From an uncultured Candidatus Saccharibacteria bacterium (GTDB lineage: Bacteria > Patescibacteriota > Minisyncoccia > Phycocordibacterales > UBA2163): DNA of 64,000 bases. Shown in pieces: positions 8,036 through 59,264 of this stretch (the stretch's first letter is position 1; every line of letters begins with the position of its first letter). The notes beneath the pieces are model-generated. The model saw only the letters and a list, made by a program, of their open reading frames with translations, had not been told where the DNA came from and did not search any database. The translations under genes were made by a program, and so were the position numbers. The stretch is from NCBI GenBank assembly GCA_964626705.1, contig CAZVGL010000001.1:87643-151642 (forward strand), in the 5' to 3' direction.

Positions 8036-9487
8036 ATGAAACAAAATTATTTATATATCCTGATAGGTGGGTTTGCAGTGGGTATATTATTTCGGTCATT
8101 TTTTAATCTAGGTTTATCTTTCTCAATCTTTCTAATCGCACTTTCGGGTGTGATTTTTCTTTTTTATTATTTAAATAAAAACAAAGGACAGTCCTTTGTG
8201 TGGATAAGTATCTTTATACTTTTTGCTGGTGTTGGAGTATTGCGGTTTGATGTTGCAGATTTAAATAAGGGAAGTCTTGTGCTTGATGAAGTAGTAGGAC
8301 AAGAGGTTGTGTTAGAGGGGGTTGTCGTAGATGAGCCAGATGAGAGGGAAAATAATACGAGGCTAATTGTTAATTTCATTGATACTGGTAGTAAGGCTAT
8401 TATCACAGCAGATATACACCCAAGGTTTTCATATGGAGATAAAGTGAGTATAAATGGGGAGTTATTGAAGCCTAAAAATTTTGTAGGAGAAGACGGTGAT
8501 AGTTTTGACTATGTATCATATCTTGCAAAAGATGAGATCTTTTATCAAATGTTTTATCCAAATGTTGAGCTCATCTCAAGCGGACATGGCAATATTATAA
8601 AGCGCAATTTATTTGCATTTAAGCGTGTGTTTCTGGAGAAAGTAAGTAGAGTGATTCCTGATCCGCAAAGCTCGCTTCTAGGTGGGCTGGTAGTTGGGGC
8701 AAAGCAGTCGCTTGGTGAGGAGCTCCAAGAAGATTTTAGAAAAACTGGGATTATACACATTGTTGTTCTTTCTGGATATAACGTGACAATTGTTGCAGAA
8801 GCAATAATGCGTTTCTTTTCTTTCTTGCCGTATATGTTTGGTATCTCCGTCGGGGTAGTGTCTATTATTTTCTTTGCTATTATGACCGGAGGGTCTGCGA
8901 CCATAGTCCGTGCTTCTATGATGGCCATATTTGTATTGCTTGCACGCGCTACAGGAAGGACGCAGACTATAACGCGAGCATTGTTCTTAGCGGGTTTTCT
9001 GATGCTCTTGCACAATCCAAAAATCTTAGTCTTTGATTCTTCTTTTCAGCTTTCATTTACTGCAACACTTGCGCTTATATATTTAGCACCGAAGATAGAA
9101 AAACATTTTCATTTAGTACCCACTAGGTTTCAGCTAAGAGAATTCGCAGTCGCAACAGTTGCGACGCAGATCTTTGTATTGCCGATGATTCTTTACAAGA
9201 TGGGAACGCTCTCACTCGTAGCGCTTCCGGTGAATCTTCTTATATTAGTATTTGTACCGATAACTATGCTTTTTGGTTTTGTCACAGGCATGCTCGGATT
9301 CATCTCTACAGTCTTCTCATTACCATTTGCATTTATAACAAATTTTCTACTTACGTATCAGCTTAAAGTTGTAGACATTTTCGCATCACTACCATTTGCA
9401 TCTATAGAAATAAACTACTTCCCGATATGGATAGCAGTCCTAATTTACATAATCTACGGATTATTTCTGTGGAAGTGGAAAGATTAA
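8036..9487 (+). CDS. comEC: ComEC/Rec2 DNA-uptake channel, core only (DUF4131 + competence domain, no MBL domain)
   Basis: It is a polytopic membrane protein. The conserved ComEC block LLGGLVVGAKQSLGEELQEDFRKTGIIHIVVLSGYNVTIV is present. It carries one in-frame palindromic insert at 8181-8199. Confidence 0.82.
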   Translation: MKQNYLYILIGGFAVGILFRSFFNLGLSFSIFLIALSGVIFLFYYLNKNKGQSFVWISIFILFAGVGVLRFDVADLNKGSLVLDEVVGQEVVLEGVVVDEPDERENNTRLIVNFIDTGSKAIITADIHPRFSYGDKVSINGELLKPKNFVGEDGDSFDYVSYLAKDEIFYQMFYPNVELISSGHGNIIKRNLFAFKRVFLEKVSRVIPDPQSSLLGGLVVGAKQSLGEELQEDFRKTGIIHIVVLSGYNVTIVAEAIMRFFSFLPYMFGISVGVVSIIFFAIMTGGSATIVRASMMAIFVLLARATGRTQTITRALFLAGFLMLLHNPKILVFDSSFQLSFTATLALIYLAPKIEKHFHLVPTRFQLREFAVATVATQIFVLPMILYKMGTLSLVALPVNLLILVFVPITMLFGFVTGMLGFISTVFSLPFAFITNFLLTYQLKVVDIFASLPFASIEINYFPIWIAVLIYIIYGLFLWKWKD

Positions 9488-11312: not shown

Positions 11313-11963
11313 ATGCAACCTGATTTCATATTTATAATAATAATACTTATATTTTCCGTAGTGATACATGAAGTAGCACATGGTTATGCTGCTAACTACT
11401 TGGGCGACCCAACGGCGCGTTTGGCAGGCAGACTTACTCTTAACCCTATAAAACACTTGGATATGATGGGGTCTATTATTATCCCAGCCATACTTATACT
11501 CACAAGTGCTGGATTTATTTTTGGTTGGGCAAAGCCAGTACCATATAATCCGTATAATCTACGAAAGGGTGGCAAATGGGCAGAGGCGATAGTCGCAGGA
11601 GCAGGGCCAGCTTCGAACTTTCTTATAGCGATAATATTTGGGCTTTTGCTTAGGTTCGGTATCGTGTTTGGTTTTGCTACTGTACCTTTTATACAAATAG
11701 CTGGGATAATAGTTTTTGTAAACATAATGCTTGGCGTGTTTAACCTTATACCCATACCACCACTGGACGGCTCAAAGGTTCTTGCGGGCATACTTCCGTA
11801 TGATGCAGGGCAGGCATATAGAAGATTTCAAGACAATATATCTCGGTATGGTTTTATTGGAATAATCGGATTTTTATTTATATTTATCTGGATCCTTGGC
11901 CCTATTTTTGTAAAATTAGTTTCTTTAATCTTCTCACTCATAACAGGGTTGCCTTTCTTTTAG
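11313..11963 (+). CDS. Site-2 protease (M50)-like membrane Zn-metalloprotease (COG1994-type)
   Basis: HEVAH (HExxH) lies inside a TM helix and there are multiple TM segments; length 216 aa. Confidence 0.6.
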   Translation: MQPDFIFIIIILIFSVVIHEVAHGYAANYLGDPTARLAGRLTLNPIKHLDMMGSIIIPAILILTSAGFIFGWAKPVPYNPYNLRKGGKWAEAIVAGAGPASNFLIAIIFGLLLRFGIVFGFATVPFIQIAGIIVFVNIMLGVFNLIPIPPLDGSKVLAGILPYDAGQAYRRFQDNISRYGFIGIIGFLFIFIWILGPIFVKLVSLIFSLITGLPFF

Positions 11964-12132
11964 TACTTGACAAGATAGTCAAAGTGTGCTAGTATATAGG
12001 CATAATACATCGGGTGTTATTTGATCTTTTATTTTTTTGATTTTTTAGCCGAAAGGGGTTAAAAATGAAATATTTATTTACTTTACTTATTGTTGCGATT
12101 ACTTTTGTTTTTTCAACTCAAAATTCTTTTGC
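11901..12132 (+). repeat. 232-bp direct repeat, copy 1 (3' end of the protease gene + promoter + RBS + signal-peptide coding region)
   Basis: It is identical to 13021-13252 by visual alignment. Confidence 0.9.
11967..11995 (+). promoter_or_regulatory. Predicted sigma70-like promoter (TTGACA-N17-TAGTAT), copy 1
   Basis: Near-consensus hexamers lie inside the duplicated 232-bp block upstream of the 12065 gene. Confidence 0.5.
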
Positions 12133-13000: not shown

Positions 13001-13024
13001 TTGCACCCAAAAAGGGCACGCCGA
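13001..13024 (+). repeat. Truncated solo copy of the TTGCAC structured-repeat family (head only) abutting copy 2 of the 232-bp duplication
   Basis: TTGCACCCAAAAAGGGCACGCCGA matches the unit heads at 13648, 13707 and 21562. Confidence 0.7.
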
Positions 13025-13252
13025 TTTTTGTAAAATTAGTTTCTTTAATCTTCTCACTCATAACAGGGTTGCCTTTCTTTTAGTACTTGACAAGATAGTC
13101 AAAGTGTGCTAGTATATAGGCATAATACATCGGGTGTTATTTGATCTTTTATTTTTTTGATTTTTTAGCCGAAAGGGGTTAAAAATGAAATATTTATTTA
13201 CTTTACTTATTGTTGCGATTACTTTTGTTTTTTCAACTCAAAATTCTTTTGC
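13021..13252 (+). repeat. 232-bp direct repeat, copy 2
   Basis: It is identical to 11901-12132 and carries the same promoter (TTGACA at 13087, TAGTAT at 13110), RBS and signal-peptide codons. Confidence 0.9.
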
Positions 13253-13647: not shown

Positions 13648-13889
13648 TTGCACCCAAAAAGGGTACTGCAATCTGCAAATCAATCACTACGTTCTTGAGC
13701 AAACCGTTGCACCCAAAGGGCACGCCGGTTTGTAGCTGATCACTCCGTTCTCAGACAAACCGTTGCACCCAAAGGGCACGCCGGTTTGTGGCCAATCGCT
13801 TTGCTCTTGGACAAACCGTTGCACCTAAAGGGCACTGCAATCTACAAATCAATCGCTATCGCTCTTGAGTAGATTGGTTGCATTTTTTT
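13648..13889 (+). repeat. Tandem array of four structured repeat units of 56-59 bp (order B-A-A-B) plus a terminal TTGCAT, immediately upstream of rpsL
   Basis: The units start at 13648, 13707, 13763 and 13819. Each begins TTGCACC(C/T)AAAGGG(C/T)AC and ends ...AAACCG / GATTGG. The A units carry the inverted repeat CGGTTTGT-N21-ACAAACCG. The final TTGCAT at 13878 can serve as a -35 for rpsL. Confidence 0.85.
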
Positions 13890-21464: not shown

Positions 21465-21561
21465 TATCTAATCAGTAAAAAAAGTTTATAATCAGTTACG
21501 CTCGCATACCCTGCATCATAGTGGGTTTGCGAGCATTTTTTTGTATAAAATCACCAAAATC

Positions 21562-21762
21562 TTGCACCCAAAGGGCACGCCGGTTTGTGGCTGATCACTC
21601 CGTTCTCAGACAAACCGTTGCACCCAAAGGGTACTTGCAATTTGCTAGGCCAATCGCTACGCTTTTGGGCAAATTGGTTGCACGACTCGGATTAGACAGC
21701 CTCCATGCACGCCGGTTTGTGGCTGATCACTCCGTTCTCAGACAAACCGTTGCATTTTATTG
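21562..21762 (+). repeat. Second tandem array of the TTGCAC structured-repeat family (units of 56, 60 and 72 bp plus a terminal TTGCAT) immediately upstream of rplC
   Basis: Unit 1 (21562-21617) differs from unit 2 of the rpsL array at one position. Unit 3 carries a 25-nt insert after the head. The array ends in TTGCAT, which forms a -35. Confidence 0.85.
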
Positions 21763-21778
21763 AGTATTATAGTACTAT
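21750..21778 (+). promoter_or_regulatory. Predicted promoter TTGCAT-N17-TACTAT for the rplC sub-operon
   Basis: The hexamers and spacing fit. The -35 is the terminal repeat head. Confidence 0.5.
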
Positions 21779-27550: not shown

Positions 27551-28099
27551 ATGATTCATATAAAAGATAGACAAAAGAATACGTTTGATAATTTGAAAGA
27601 GACTTTCAAATATACAAATGTGATGCAGACACCAAAGATAGAAAAGGTGGTTATTTCAGCTGGTATTGGTTCTGTAAAAGATAAAAACAAAATCAAGACT
27701 ATAAAAGATAGACTCGCACGTATAACAGGGCAGAAAGAAGCAGCAAGAGCTGCAAAGAAATCTATAGCTACATTTAAGACACGAGAGGGTGACATACTAG
27801 GGTATCAGGTTACACTACGAGGTCAGAGAATGTATGACTTCTTAGATAGGCTTATTCATATCGCAATACCACGAACAAGAGACTTTAGAGGGCTCGACAT
27901 AAAAGGTATAGATGAGATGGGCAACTTCACTATGGGTATTAAAGAACACACGATCTTCCCAGAAACTTCAGATGAAGATCTAAAAGATGTGTTTGGATTT
28001 GCTATAACTTTTGTTACAACAGCTAAAAATAAAGAAGAAGCAAAAGAGTATTTCAAGAGTTTAGGTTTCCCATTTAAAAAGGAAGAAGAAAAAGCTTAA
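27551..28099 (+). CDS. rplE: 50S ribosomal protein uL5
   Basis: L5 family; length 182 aa. Confidence 0.95.
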   Translation: MIHIKDRQKNTFDNLKETFKYTNVMQTPKIEKVVISAGIGSVKDKNKIKTIKDRLARITGQKEAARAAKKSIATFKTREGDILGYQVTLRGQRMYDFLDRLIHIAIPRTRDFRGLDIKGIDEMGNFTMGIKEHTIFPETSDEDLKDVFGFAITFVTTAKNKEEAKEYFKSLGFPFKKEEEKA

Positions 28100-28109
28100 A
28101 AATCAAAAT

Positions 28110-28152
28110 AAAACAACCCCGTCGCTTGCAAGCGACGGGGTTGTTTTATTTT
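28110..28152 (+). terminator. Strong terminator after rplE; the ribosomal cluster ends here
   Basis: AAAACAACCCCGTCGCTTGCAAGCGACGGGGTTGTTTT. Confidence 0.85.
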
Positions 28153-28238
28153 GATTTTGTGGTATTCTAATCAACAGTAAATTAGCCCAATTCATTATTG
28201 TAGTATTTTTAGTCTTTGTATAATATGGAGGTGTGAAG

Positions 28239-28568: not shown

Positions 28569-30884
28569 ATGAAGAGAGTTTTAATATTTTCAACATCATA
28601 TAGCCCTCTTATGGGCGGAGCGGAGGTCGCTTTAAAAGAGATAACAAATCGACTTGGATCGGAGGATTTTTGTATTACTGACACAAAGGACAGTCCTTTG
28701 TCACCACAAAGGACTGTCCTTTGTGGTGAACTTTGCTTTGACATGATTACGATGCGATATGACAAAGCTCTACCTAAGTTTGAAAGTATAGGGAATATAA
28801 ATGTACATAGAGTTTCATCTTCTAAATTATTCTTTCCATTTTTTGCATACTTTAAAGCGCTGAAGCTTCATAGGAAAAACAAATACGACATAGTATGGTC
28901 CATGATGGCAGGTAGGAACGGTTTCGCTAGTTTATTTTTCAAACTTACACATAAGAAAGTTAAATATCTTTTAACTCTACAAGAAGGAGATCGTTTAAGC
29001 TATCCAAAAGAACGTGCAGGGATTCTTTGGTTTGCAGTTGGCGGCTTGTTTAAAAAAGTTTTTACAGAAGCAGATTTTATACAGGTGATTTCTAAATACT
29101 TAGGTCAGTGGGCGCATGACATGGGGTATAGAGGTGAGATAGAGATTGTGCCAAATGGTGCAGATTTAGAAAAGTTTAAGGACGGTGACTCACAAAAAAA
29201 GAATCAAGAATTAAGAAAAGAGTTAGGGATTGGAGAAAATGAAAAAGTGATCATTACAACTTCAAGGCTTGTAGAGAAAAATGCTATCAATGACATTATA
29301 CGGACTCTTACATTTTTGCCTGATAATTATAAATTACTAATAGCTGGTAGGGGGGATCTTTTCTATGAACTTAGAAAACTTACAGATGATCTACAGCTTA
29401 CAAAAAGAGTGTTATTTCTTGGAAATATAGAACATGAGCAATTACCTCAATATTTGCACATTTCTGATGTATTTGTACGCCCATCGCTCTCTGAGGGACT
29501 TGGGATCTCGTTTATTGAGGCTATGGCGGCTTCTGTGCCTGTTATAGCGACCGAAGTAGGCGGAATCACCGATTTCCTTAAAAATGGCAAAACAGGGCTA
29601 TTTTGCGGTATCCATGACCCAAGAGGAATATCTGAGAAAATAGAGCTTTTGATGAAAGATAATACGTTACGTGAGGGTCTTATCAAGAATGCTTTAGAGA
29701 TGGTAGAGAAAACTTATGACTGGAACTTGATAGTAAAAGACATGAAAGAAAAAGTTTTTGATAAGTTTGAAGTAAGAAGAAGTGTTTTAATTACTACAGG
29801 AATATTCCCCCCAGATATCGGTGGGCCTGCTACGTATTCCAAATTGCTTTTAGATAAATTACCAAAACATGAGCTTGATGTAAAAGTGTTAAGTTTTGGT
29901 GAAGTAAGGCACATGCCGAAAATAATTCGGCATGTCGTTTACTTTTTTAAAATTTTAAACAGAAGTAGGGGTGTTGATATTATTTATGCACAAGATCCTG
30001 TAAGTGTAGGTTTTCCGTCTGCTGCTGCATCTTACGTTTTACGAAAGAAGTTTTTACTGAAAGTTGTAGGTGATTATGCATGGGAGCAGTTTAGTGTTGA
30101 AAATAATAATTTTATAACCCCAGAAGAATTTCAGAATGGAAAATATGATTTGAAAACAGAAGTAAGAAGAAAGATTGAACGATGGGTAGGAAATATTGCA
30201 AATAGAATAATCGTACCAAGTAAATACCTCAAAAAAATAGTCTCAATGTGGGAAGTGAAAGAGGAGAAGATACAAGTAATCCATAATGGTATCGTTTTGA
30301 ATAAAGATTATGGAGATAAAGAGACGTTAAGAAAGCTCCTGCAGTTTGAAGGGAATCTTATAATAACAACAGGGAGGCTTGTACCATGGAAAGGTTTTGA
30401 TACATTGATAAAAATCTTCCCAGAGATAAAAAAGAAATTTAAAGATGCTAAACTTATAATAGTTGGTTCTGGTCCACAAATGAATCATTTACAAAAACTT
30501 ATCGATGAAAAAGGCCTTGATGAAGATATAGCTCTAACTGGAAAGCTAGATAATGATTTAGTTATGCGATATAAAAAAGTTTCAGATGTGTTTGTATTAA
30601 ATACAGCTTATGAAGGTATGTCACATCATATACTGGAGGTTATGAATGTTGGTATACCCATAGTTACGACAAATGTTGGTGGTAATCCAGAACTTATTGA
30701 AAACGGAAAAACTGGTTTACTTACTGAGTATAATAATGAAAAAGAATTAGAAAAAGCTATTATAAGGTTATTAGATGATAAAGATTATGGTAACAGGCTT
30801 GCAGGAGAAGCTAAGAAAAAGGTGCAGGAGTTTAGTGAAGAAAGAATGATGGAAGAAACAGCTAATATGTTAAAAACAATATGA
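28569..30884 (+). CDS. Tandem double GT4-family glycosyltransferase (two GT-B modules, 771 aa)
   Basis: There are two EX7E-type GT1/GT4 C-terminal motifs (..SEGLGISFIEAMAASVPVIATEVGG.. and ..EGMSHHILEVMNVGIPIVTTNVGG..). A 42-bp in-frame double palindrome lies at 28683-28724. Confidence 0.8.
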   Translation: MKRVLIFSTSYSPLMGGAEVALKEITNRLGSEDFCITDTKDSPLSPQRTVLCGELCFDMITMRYDKALPKFESIGNINVHRVSSSKLFFPFFAYFKALKLHRKNKYDIVWSMMAGRNGFASLFFKLTHKKVKYLLTLQEGDRLSYPKERAGILWFAVGGLFKKVFTEADFIQVISKYLGQWAHDMGYRGEIEIVPNGADLEKFKDGDSQKKNQELRKELGIGENEKVIITTSRLVEKNAINDIIRTLTFLPDNYKLLIAGRGDLFYELRKLTDDLQLTKRVLFLGNIEHEQLPQYLHISDVFVRPSLSEGLGISFIEAMAASVPVIATEVGGITDFLKNGKTGLFCGIHDPRGISEKIELLMKDNTLREGLIKNALEMVEKTYDWNLIVKDMKEKVFDKFEVRRSVLITTGIFPPDIGGPATYSKLLLDKLPKHELDVKVLSFGEVRHMPKIIRHVVYFFKILNRSRGVDIIYAQDPVSVGFPSAAASYVLRKKFLLKVVGDYAWEQFSVENNNFITPEEFQNGKYDLKTEVRRKIERWVGNIANRIIVPSKYLKKIVSMWEVKEEKIQVIHNGIVLNKDYGDKETLRKLLQFEGNLIITTGRLVPWKGFDTLIKIFPEIKKKFKDAKLIIVGSGPQMNHLQKLIDEKGLDEDIALTGKLDNDLVMRYKKVSDVFVLNTAYEGMSHHILEVMNVGIPIVTTNVGGNPELIENGKTGLLTEYNNEKELEKAIIRLLDDKDYGNRLAGEAKKKVQEFSEERMMEETANMLKTI
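28683..28724. repeat. Two copies of the 19-bp palindrome ACAAAGGAC(A/T)GTCCTTTGT separated by CACC, in frame within the glycosyltransferase gene
   Basis: The sequence is a perfect inverted repeat with no stop codon in any frame. It encodes TKDSPLSPQRTVLC. Confidence 0.9.
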
Positions 30885-31963
30885 GAGTTTTAATGCTCAG
30901 CATAGACAAAAAAATATTTGAAGAAGAGTCTGATGCAAGAGCTCGTATGATAGAGTACGGGGAGCTTTTTGATGAGCTGCATATAGTCGTACATACGAAA
31001 AAAGGGTTTGATAATTCGCAAATATCTTCAAATGTATTTTTGTATCCAACAAACACTATGTCGAAGTTTTTTTATTTTTCTGGTGCATATAAGATATGTA
31101 AAAAGGTTATCGAAAATAATTCCATTGATATAATCACATCTCAAGACGCTTTTACGAACTTAGTTGCAGTTAGGCTAAAAAAGAAATTTAAAAATATTAA
31201 ACTTCAAGTACAAATACATACAGACTTTTTATCTAGAAAGTTTAGAAAAGAATCTATGAAGAATTTTTTTAGATACAAAGGTTATGTTAAGGGTATTAAA
31301 AGTGCAGATTACATTCGTGTAGTGTCAGAGAGTATGAAAAATAAGATAATAAGTAAGTTTGGTATAGAAACTTCAAAGATTGCTGCGCTCCCAATATTTG
31401 TAGACATAGAAAAAATAAAAAATACTACTATTACAGTAGATCTACATAAAAAGTATCCGCAGTTTGAGAAAATCATTCTGATGGCGTCTAGATTAGAGAA
31501 AGAAAAGAACATACAACTTGCAATATCTGCTATGGAAGATGTGGTAGAAAAATATCCAGAAACAGGACTTGTGATAGTTGGAAGTGGAAGTGAGTTAAAA
31601 AATTTAAAGTCTCGAGTATTAAACCTCAAATTACAAGACAATGTAATATTTGAAAGATGGCAAGATAAAGAAATAATTTATTCATATTACAAAACTACAG
31701 ACCTCTTTTTGATAACTTCAGATTATGAAGGGTATGGCCTAACTATAGTAGAAGCATTGGCTTCAAACTTGCCTGTACTTTCTACAGACGTGGGTGTGGC
31801 ACGAGAAGCTGGGGCATATATCACAGAGCGTGACAATTTGGCTCAGAATATAGTTAAATATATTGAAAGCAACCAAAAAACAGTAGAATTAACTAATTAT
31901 CCGTATAAAAACAAGCAAGAATATCTAGATAAATTTAAGCAATCCTTCATATGCGCCTTCTAA
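30881..31963 (+). CDS. GT4-family glycosyltransferase
   Basis: The C-terminal DLFLITSDYEGYGLTIVEALASNLPVLSTDVG is a GT-B motif. Confidence 0.75.
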   Translation: MRVLMLSIDKKIFEEESDARARMIEYGELFDELHIVVHTKKGFDNSQISSNVFLYPTNTMSKFFYFSGAYKICKKVIENNSIDIITSQDAFTNLVAVRLKKKFKNIKLQVQIHTDFLSRKFRKESMKNFFRYKGYVKGIKSADYIRVVSESMKNKIISKFGIETSKIAALPIFVDIEKIKNTTITVDLHKKYPQFEKIILMASRLEKEKNIQLAISAMEDVVEKYPETGLVIVGSGSELKNLKSRVLNLKLQDNVIFERWQDKEIIYSYYKTTDLFLITSDYEGYGLTIVEALASNLPVLSTDVGVAREAGAYITERDNLAQNIVKYIESNQKTVELTNYPYKNKQEYLDKFKQSFICAF

Positions 31964-32997
31964 TAGTTACACAAAAAGTAGACAAGAATGATGATAATCT
32001 TGGTTTTTTTCACCGATGGATTTTAGAGTTTGCAAAGCATTACGAGTTTATAACGATCATTGCACTTGGAGTTGGTGAGTACGATTTACCAGATAATGTT
32101 AAAGTTCTTTCTCTTGGTAAAGAGAGAGGTGCATCAAAGATAGAATATCTTATTAATTTCTATAAATACATCTGGAGTGAGCATAAAAACTACGACGCAG
32201 TATTTGTACATATGAATCCGATCTATGTAGTATTAGGCGGGCTGTTATGGAAGTCTTGGAAGAAAAAGGTAGGACTTTGGTATACGCATAAATCAGTTGA
32301 TACAAAACTTCGTATTGCAGAAGGCTGGGTGGACTATATTTTTACCGCGTCTGATAAAAGTTTTCGTATGCGAAGTAAAAAGCTGCATATAATGGGGCAT
32401 GGGATAGATGCAGACGAATTTAAAGTAAACAAAGGACTGTCCTTTGTCGCTACAAAAGACAGTCCTTTGTTAATATCTAACAAAATAAATATTTTACATA
32501 TTGGACGTATTTCTCGTTCCAAAAATATACATTTATTTGTTAAGTTTGCTGAAATACTAAAAAACAAAGGAGTAAAGTTTCAGATAAATATCGTTGGTGG
32601 TGCAATAACAAAAGAAGATAAAGGATATTTGGAAATATTACAGAAAAATATTTTAAATAAAGAGCTGGCAGAATATTTTAATTTTCTTGGACCTATGGCG
32701 CCACATGAAAGAAGTTTTCGTTTTATAGAAAATGATATTTTTATAAACCTAAGCGATACAGGAAGTATGGATAAGACGGTGCTTGAAGCAATGCTTTCTG
32801 GAATACAAGTCTTGGTGTCAAATGAAGCATTCATGAATATCTTGCCAAGTGAAAACAAAACAACAAAAGATCCAGAAAGGATCGCGAAAGATATACAGCG
32901 GATTATAGGTGTTACACCGAACCCATCTCTGCGAGGATATGTATTAAAAGAACATAATCTTAGTAATTTAATATTAGCAATAGTTAAAACATATTAA
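31951..32997 (+). CDS. GT4-like glycosyltransferase
   Basis: The C-terminal GSMDKTVLEAMLSGIQVLVSNE motif is present. A 42-bp double palindrome lies at 32438-32479. Confidence 0.65.
   Translation: MRLLIVTQKVDKNDDNLGFFHRWILEFAKHYEFITIIALGVGEYDLPDNVKVLSLGKERGASKIEYLINFYKYIWSEHKNYDAVFVHMNPIYVVLGGLLWKSWKKKVGLWYTHKSVDTKLRIAEGWVDYIFTASDKSFRMRSKKLHIMGHGIDADEFKVNKGLSFVATKDSPLLISNKINILHIGRISRSKNIHLFVKFAEILKNKGVKFQINIVGGAITKEDKGYLEILQKNILNKELAEYFNFLGPMAPHERSFRFIENDIFINLSDTGSMDKTVLEAMLSGIQVLVSNEAFMNILPSENKTTKDPERIAKDIQRIIGVTPNPSLRGYVLKEHNLSNLILAIVKTY
32438..32479. repeat. Two copies of the same palindrome family (ACAAAGGACTGTCCTTTGT, CGCT, ACAAAAGACAGTCCTTTGT), in frame within the glycosyltransferase gene
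   Basis: It encodes NKGLSFVATKDSPL. The second copy has one mismatch. Confidence 0.9.
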
Positions 32998-58792: not shown

Positions 58793-58994
58793 AAAAAGTT
58801 TTTAAAGTTATCCACACTTTTTTTAAAAAAATATTGTTTTAACTTTTTTTGTATTAGATAATATAAGTAAACACACGCAACACATTTATTTTTAGTTTTG
58901 TAAAATAAATTTTAAAAATAAAAATATTGGTCGGGAGTTGTTGTTGTTTGATTATTAACTCGAAATATAATTGTAATTGATCAATTAAAATAAT

Positions 58995-59264
58995 ATGGCA
59001 ACAAAAAGAAAAGCTGCAAAGCGAAAGCCAGCTAAAAAGCGAGTAGTAAAAAGAAAAGCAGCTCCAAAGAAAAAAGTAGCAAAGCGAAAGCCAGCTAAAA
59101 GGAAAGCAGCACCAAAGAAAAAGAAGGCTGCTCCAAAGCGAAAGCCAGCTAAAAGGAAAGCAGCACCAAAGAAAAAGAAGGCTGCTCCAAAGCGAAAAGC
59201 TGCAAAGCGAAAGCCAGCTAAAAAGAAAGCTGCAAAAAGGAAGCCAGCTCGACGACGACGATAA
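58995..59264 (+). CDS. Histone-H1-like Lys/Ala/Pro-rich basic protein (89 aa)
   Basis: It consists almost entirely of KRKPAKRKAAPKKKKAAPK repeats and is encoded with two exact 54-bp tandem repeats (59081-59188). A terminator lies downstream. The minus-strand ORF at 58854-59360 is its mirror artefact. There is no clear RBS. Confidence 0.5.
   Translation: MATKRKAAKRKPAKKRVVKRKAAPKKKVAKRKPAKRKAAPKKKKAAPKRKPAKRKAAPKKKKAAPKRKAAKRKPAKKKAAKRKPARRRR

Follow-up and report, generated by a model that had tools for sequence, protein, structure and literature searches.

The doubled palindrome at positions 32429-32470 of the window (the whole stretch of 64,000 nucleotides that was analysed, from an uncultured Candidatus Saccharibacteria bacterium) is most probably a non-autonomous element of the REP type in a dimeric, REPIN-like form, made of two inverted copies of a 19-21-bp palindrome. 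The family to which it belongs lives in genomes of Patescibacteria (CPR) together with a REP-associated tyrosine (Y1/HUH) transposase (RAYT), by which the element would be mobilised in trans. The repeat has the form ACAAAGGAC-N-GTCCTTTGT, and the features of the window that carry it are the following, the palindromes, spacer and insertion being given without strand.

31951-32997, + strand: host gene, a 348-aa GT4-family glycosyltransferase; the doublet encodes approximately residues 160-173
32429-32447: palindrome copy 1, ACAAAGGACTGTCCTTTGT, perfect, centre T, read as (N)KGLSFV
32448-32451: spacer CGCT, 4 nt, the loop of the long hairpin; the doublet in locus L068 has the same spacer
32452-32470: palindrome copy 2, ACAAAAGACAGTCCTTTGT, one G>A mismatch in the left arm, centre A, read as TKDSPL
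28569-30884, + strand: host gene of the sister locus, a 771-aa fusion of two GT4 glycosyltransferase modules
28669-28731: sister locus, a 63-bp insertion relative to two orthologues, from DNA alignment
28683-28701 and 28706-28724: perfect inverted doublet inside the sister insertion, spacer CACC
8181-8199: single perfect copy, read KGQSFV in the gene for a ComEC-like competence protein (8036-9487, + strand)

The doublet and its host gene

The two copies and their spacer form a block of 42 bp in the local sequence ...GTAA ACAAAGGACTGTCCTTTGT CGCT ACAAAAGACAGTCCTTTGT TAAT..., which is translated as NKGLSFV-A-TKDSPL in the ORF at 31951-32997 (peptide NKGLSFVATKDSPL), and the centre A of copy 2 is complementary to the centre T of copy 1. 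A first-pass annotation of this DNA had put the block at 32438-32479, which is correct in length and 9 bp too high, 32438 being the centre of copy 1. Its description of copy 1 as perfect and copy 2 as having a single mismatch holds, as does its statement that the host is a different glycosyltransferase from that at 28683 (Pfam matches to Glycos_transf_1 and Glyco_trans_1_4; PF00534 and PF13692). The reading frame is also shifted by one relative to the sister locus, as had been noted, with KGLSFV followed by TKDSPL here and TKDSPL followed by QRTVLC there (TKDSPL-SP-QRTVLC in full).

The host enzyme has the GT-B fold with a C-terminal Glycos_transf_1 domain, and its AlphaFold2 model (pLDDT 90.5) consists of two Rossmann-like halves. 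The sole segment of the model with pLDDT below 50 comprises residues 160-175, which have no secondary structure and lie between the halves as an interdomain linker. The residues encoded by the doublet are predicted to occupy this linker, the only disordered stretch of the glycosyltransferase.

Other copies in the window

Allowing up to 3 mismatches, we found five copies of the palindrome in the window (8181, 28683, 28706, 32429 and 32452), where dinucleotide-preserving shuffles of the window give an expectation of 0.07 and none of 100 shuffles reached five. The half-site GTCCTTTGT occurs 9 times against 0.51 expected, always within these five copies, and no decayed half-sites of the palindrome were found in the window. 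All three loci that hold the copies are intragenic.

Insertion relative to orthologues

The segment is absent from 15 orthologues of the host glycosyltransferase (53-81% identity), in agreement with the earlier view of a second insertion of the doubled palindrome, which is in frame and independent. The linker GHGID..KINILH spans 24 aa in this gene, against 14 aa in each of the three orthologues that were compared as DNA, so that the net gain is 10 aa (30 bp) and not 14 aa (42 bp). Another orthologue, P0009 (70% identity; its DNA is in L068), carries TKDSPLSLQRTVLC, a perfect doublet with spacer CGCT, at a different site in the same gene, ~100 residues further upstream in the protein. The presence of the same doublet type at different sites in two orthologues argues strongly that the insertions were independent.

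At the sister locus, 24 orthologues of the glycosyltransferase lack the doublet, and at the DNA level the insert is an exact 63-bp indel against two of these 24. This insert, the only one whose boundaries are defined to the base, consists of the 42-bp doublet, preceded by 14 additional bases and followed by 7, and TTTG is present at both junctions. The net inserts measure 63 bp at 28669-28731, ~30 bp at 32429 and ~45 bp in P0009. The annotation had suggested that the element inserts as a 42-bp unit; this was not borne out, given these insert sizes, spacers that range from 1 to 13 nt, and the fact that most copies are single. When the dimer was sought elsewhere, as had been proposed, it did recur: the 23-bp spacing of its copies was seen at four independent sites in three genomes (twice in the window, in L068 with CGCT and in L023 with TGCT). 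In other lineages the two copies are separated by 1, 3, 5, 7 or more nt. By the sequence evidence, the inverted doublet is a real and recurrent form of the element, which may or may not move as an exact 42-bp unit.

Two further candidates for a sign of the unit were rejected. An apparent 42-bp presence/absence polymorphism in the neighbouring glycosyltransferase (757 against 771 aa) was traced to the choice of a start codon 42 bp further downstream in identical DNA, and a left flank AAAGTAA(AC), common to window 32429 and L068, is too weak to mark the edge of a unit given that it is shifted by 2 nt between the two. No presence/absence polymorphism was found among near-identical strains, and so there is no sign of current activity.

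We also noted palindromic extensions of 5-8 further bp that are specific to individual copies (28701-28729, L033:6571-6589, L037:376-394, L042:547-565 and L059:4964-4982). An extension of at least 4 bp beyond the 19-mer is present in 18 of 97 copies, which suggests either that copies inserted into the loop of hairpins already present or that the target was duplicated in inverted orientation.

Architecture of the doublet

Both doublets of the window fold as single 20-bp hairpins in which the 4-nt spacer is the loop, with RNA energies of -25.6 and -34.6 kcal/mol and hairpin z-scores of -8.3 and -6.6; the arms of the sister doublet (28682-28725) are 20 nt long and 100% complementary. The centre base is the sole asymmetric position of the palindrome. 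Among 19 non-redundant doublets drawn from many genomes, 16 combine complementary centre bases (binomial p = 0.002), and hence the doublets are inverted repeats, as in REPINs. In one pair of apparently orthologous doublets, on two related metagenome contigs with matching flanks (L076:424-464 and L080:86-126), the two centre bases have changed places jointly (C..G against G..C) and the spacers differ by one base; the swap looks like a compensatory change that would keep the long hairpin.

These data bear directly on what is mobile. An alternative that we take seriously, and to which we would give somewhat less than an even chance, is that only the monomer moves and that doublets arise locally, the 42-bp dimer being a product and not the transposing unit. 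The local route could be a second insertion beside the first, with the element as its own preferred target, or a hairpin-templated or slippage duplication. Such an origin fits the prevalence of single copies, the lineage-specific spacers within the range of 1-13 nt, the doublets of 39, 41 and 43 bp (none of 42 bp) returned by a metagenome scan, the insert sizes, which are never 42 bp, and the difference in spacer between the two doublets of the window (CGCT and CACC). It fits less well with the identical CGCT spacer at the unrelated sites of window 32448 and L068 (TGCT in L023), with the joint swap of centre bases in L076 and L080, and with the proportion of complementary centres, which independent insertions in random orientation would hold at ~50%.

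Distribution of the palindrome across genomes

The exact 19-mer identified 62 loci among 185,579 species genomes (one genome per species), a database in which a rough estimate gives about ten by chance. Nearly all of the 62 loci are from Patescibacteria (Saccharibacteria, Adler-, Kaiser-, Taylor- and Howlettbacteria, Paceibacteria and Minisyncoccia), and several MAGs contribute multiple loci each. Dozens of unrelated MAGs and one single-cell genome (SAG AM-311-F06) contain the element, and the 19-mer had no matches in viral contigs. Going by the names attached to its closest homologues, the window itself derives from a Paceibacteria-like organism.

Several copies are also held by MAGs with labels from outside the CPR, namely L010, L013, L015, L044 and L055 (CAZYUF01, labelled Pseudomonadales) and L014 (labelled Bdellovibrionales); L010, with its Pseudomonadales label, holds a homologue of the transposase as well. 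These MAGs may be mislabelled or misbinned; if they are not, the system extends beyond the Patescibacteria.

A RAYT-like transposase linked to the palindrome

An ORF of 225-235 aa, homologous between loci, is present at six of the 62 loci. At L042 seven perfect copies surround and overlap an ORF of 231 aa, and homologous ORFs adjoin the palindrome in five more loci. At five of the six (L042, L038, L020, L022 and L010) the ORF is bracketed: a copy that is perfect or nearly so precedes the start by ~15-30 bp, and a further copy is situated at the stop codon or extends over it. We considered a CRISPR-like array for L042, where 7 copies fall within 1.1 kb, and rejected it: the spacing is irregular and the copies surround and overlap the RAYT-like ORF.

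The CPR protein P0241 matches Pfam Y1_Tnp with 25.8 bits (gathering cut-off 23). Its best NCBIfam match is REP_Tyr_transpos (NF047646), the curated RAYT model, which it fails with 28.4 bits, far below the cut-off of 80. Residues H87 and H89 (HFH triad) and Y147, within a YxHLNP motif, are invariant in the RAYT-like family. The protein has ~230 aa and a helical C-terminal extension, and the top PDB match that Foldseek returned for its AlphaFold2 model (pLDDT 87.6) is 4ER8 (E 4e-5), the E. coli REP-associated tyrosine transposase bound to a REP hairpin, with the TnpA proteins of IS608 and ISDra2 next. A profile search of the PDB gave a weak match to ISDra2 (E 0.03); matches to the TetR family (CmeR) from a single-sequence search of the PDB were judged spurious.

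At E≤1e-10 the family comprises 2,819 homologues, of which the named ones belong to the CPR (Paceibacterota, Adlerbacteria, Parcubacteria and Minisyncoccia). The C-terminus TKDxP(L) is found in 25 of the best 120 of these 2,819 homologues, and this ending means that the 3' palindrome copy overlaps the stop codon; other RAYT C-termini (TKVSPL, TEDRPP and KGQTFV) point to variant palindromes elsewhere. The RAYT-like proteins next to the 19-mer are only 31-44% identical to one another.

We observed in addition that RAYT-like genes contain a copy of their own flanking palindrome within the coding sequence, at a fixed position near aa 57 (L042:765-783, L038:7498-7516 and L020:734-752). It encodes a conserved KYKGxSF motif and is a perfect 21-bp palindrome in L042. 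Self-insertion was rejected as its origin, as the motif is conserved and free of indels across 120 homologues; the internal palindrome hints at possible derivation of the REP from the transposase gene, at autoregulation or at conversion.

A search of the 64-kb window by tblastn and HMM search returned no RAYT homologue, and longer contigs of the same organism have neither RAYT nor further palindrome copies in ~10 kb downstream and ~8 kb upstream. Mobilisation in the source genome, by action in trans, would thus depend on an enzyme encoded elsewhere.

Proposed mechanism

The mechanism that we propose for the REP-type element is modelled on E. coli TnpA-REP and on IS608/ISDra2, and would proceed by single-strand transposition with the RAYT as catalyst. 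On single-stranded DNA the palindrome would form an 8-bp stem with a 3-nt loop, and the doublet a single hairpin of 20 bp closed by a loop of 4 nt. This hairpin would be bound by the transposase, whose gene would lie elsewhere in the genome, and be cut beside its foot through a phosphotyrosine link; the enzyme would then rejoin the piece into single-stranded target DNA. The doublet may or may not have arrived in one event. Its persistence would follow from the combination of a stop-free palindrome, a net length that is a multiple of three and a disordered interdomain linker, with the doublet being translated, and no benefit to the host would be needed.

Comparison with known systems

The architecture known as the REPtron, a REP or REPIN together with a RAYT (TnpA-REP), has been described in Proteobacteria (PMC3333891, PMC3116915, PMC8266576), and the biochemistry of TnpA-REP includes a cleavage and strand-transfer assay (PMC8266576). 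The CPR family resembles these systems in its short palindrome, its many copies and its inverted doublets that give one long hairpin, as well as in the Y1/HUH gene flanked by repeat copies in the CPR genomes L042, L038, L020, L022 and L010. The group 3 REP of S. maltophilia also has an 8-bp perfect stem with a 3-nt loop, and E. coli TnpA-REP (4ER8) is the best structural match to the predicted fold of the CPR protein. In contrast, the conserved GTAG (or CGTC) tag is absent here: CTAC/GTAG occurs in 19 of 194 flanks (10%), and the consensus flank has T at -1 (62%) and T or A at -2. Further differences are that about half of the CPR copies lie inside genes whereas REPs are predominantly extragenic, that the CPR protein is longer, with ~230 aa and the helical extension, and scores below the NCBIfam RAYT cut-off, and that the hosts are Patescibacteria. 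Of the traits of the REP/REPIN class, the family shows the dispersed short palindrome and the inverted doublet hairpin, and neither the GTAG tag nor a predominantly extragenic location. The points that speak against a REP/RAYT assignment are that GTAG/CTAC is not conserved, that the NCBIfam and PDB profile scores are weak, that the insert sizes differ from the length of the element, that no RAYT homologue turned up in the window or in ~18 kb around it, and that near-identical strains showed no presence/absence polymorphism.

Rickettsia palindromic elements (RPE) are the classic case of in-frame insertion, RPE-1 being much longer, with ~100-150 bp. Intragenic REPs have been catalogued, with more than half as dimers or groups and many in genes for DNA replication and repair, and RAYT genes flanked by REPs were recorded in the same work (Di Nocera et al. 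2013, PMC3733652). The CPR family shares with the intragenic GTAG/CGTC REPs and with RPE the presence of in-frame palindromic repeats in functional genes, and with the former the residence in replication and repair genes (here LigA, UvrC and RecG). It differs from both in sequence family and in phylum, and in that intragenic residence is the norm here. In-frame REP dimers have been known from other phyla since 2013, and the doublet is not a new principle.

With IS200/IS605 and its PATE/MITE derivatives the CPR family has in common a Y1 HUH transposase, subterminal hairpins, a single-strand mechanism and the lack of classical inverted terminal repeats; in L022 and L010 one identical palindrome stands at either end of the gene, as in a compact IS. 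The ends of IS200/IS605, however, are two different imperfect hairpins with defined cleavage tetranucleotides, whereas here the same perfect palindrome is found at both ends, and the modelled CPR protein matches IS608/ISDra2 TnpA less well than TnpA-REP.

We found no literature that links RAYT or REPIN with Patescibacteria/CPR, and a 2018 phylogenomics paper on HUH does not mention Patescibacteria/CPR taxa. The findings would extend selfish DNA of the REP/RAYT type to the ultra-small Patescibacteria, for which we found no published description, and they account for short odd insertions (TKDxPL, KGxSFV and QRTVLC) in otherwise conserved CPR proteins, which can mislead alignments, gene calling and structure prediction. 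The hairpin and its enzyme also offer a compact and highly conserved pair for the study of substrate recognition by Y1 transposases.

Residence inside genes

Taking the window and the other genomes together, 48 of 95 perfect non-redundant copies lie within ORFs of at least 200 aa, where random positions in the same loci would do so in 73% of cases; the depletion from genes is only mild. The intragenic hosts include RecG, LigA, RNase R, AlaRS, UvrC, a MurD-like ligase, a P-type ATPase and ComEC, and the copy in LigA is a doublet situated just before the KxDG motif. The annotation had held that all frames are tolerated. All three are indeed used in the window (TKDSPL, KGxSFV and QRTVLC), but they are not tolerated equally, since the intragenic copies comprise 26 read as KGxSFV, 17 as TKDxPL and 5 as QRTVLC (chi-square p ~0.001). 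The palindrome is free of stop codons in every frame and with any centre base. We rejected this property as evidence of adaptation, as ~23% of random palindromes of the same form at 36% GC are also stop-free.

A bolder version of the REP-type reading, which we regard as unlikely, is that the family is adapted to life inside genes. Its stop-free palindrome, with three translations compatible with loops, would have colonised the coding sequence of gene-dense CPR genomes in at least two classes, keeping an identical 19-nt core while the RAYT diverged to ~31% identity, although the apparent invariance of the core is partly an ascertainment effect of a search that used the exact core. If this is true, the family would repeatedly give rise to surface-loop insertions in essential CPR proteins.

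The perfect dyad symmetry of the palindrome, typical of sites bound by dimers, the strong conservation of its core across CPR lineages, the lack of decayed half-sites in the window and the copy in comEC might instead indicate an immobile site that evolved in place under selection, either as an operator for a dimeric DNA-binding protein or as a DNA-uptake or competence signal in bacteria that depend on ComEC. We consider this improbable, because the copies are extra residues absent from orthologues, their positions differ between orthologous genes, they fall in unrelated housekeeping genes and bracket RAYT-like genes, and their density (~3 loci in 82 kb) is far below that of known uptake sequences. 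There is still less in favour of removal of the insert before the mature protein is made, as an intervening sequence at the level of RNA or protein that would leave the enzyme unchanged. The strong 20-bp RNA hairpin could be a substrate of RNase III, but cutting it would destroy the message and not splice it, no known intron or intein is nearly as short as 42 nt, and the reading frame is kept in all intragenic copies, which would be needless if the segment were removed; Rfam at its gathering threshold had no match over the window, and a tRNA scan also returned nothing. Last, library artefacts such as a chimeric palindromic read or an adapter-like sequence can create perfect palindromes, but an origin of the doublet in assembly or sequencing is hardly conceivable, as the four contigs that were compared (JGI, ENA and Logan; different samples and pipelines), each assembled independently, agree throughout the 100 bp around the site, the identical host protein is indexed on at least 24 contigs, the insert is in frame within intact genes, and the same element is found in the unrelated MAGs and the SAG given above.

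Other repeats in the window

The window contains further repeats besides the palindrome. A second, unrelated family is intergenic (13683-13835 and 21555-21766) and has a period of ~56 nt; imperfect palindromes (CAAACCGTTGCACCCAAAGGGCACGCCGGTTTG) alternate in it with GGCTGATCACTCCGTTCTCAGA, in at least five units at two loci 7.8 kb apart. A direct repeat of 232 nt, with copies that are 100% identical and 1,120 bp apart, is present at 11901-12132 and 13021-13252. A perfect palindrome of 60 bp (28099-28158), with 30-nt arms and no loop, begins at the stop codon of ribosomal protein L5; past it the ribosomal protein operon is broken by a small ORF of 68 aa together with an extended cluster of genes for glycosyltransferases, methyltransferases and radical-SAM proteins, and the related genome L088 has the same L14-L24-L5-GT order. 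Finally, the coding region at 58987-59256 is rich in Lys and Ala and consists of tandem repeats of KRKPAKKAAPKKK-like units with periods of 54-69 nt, much as in histone-H1-like or DNA-binding proteins of low complexity.
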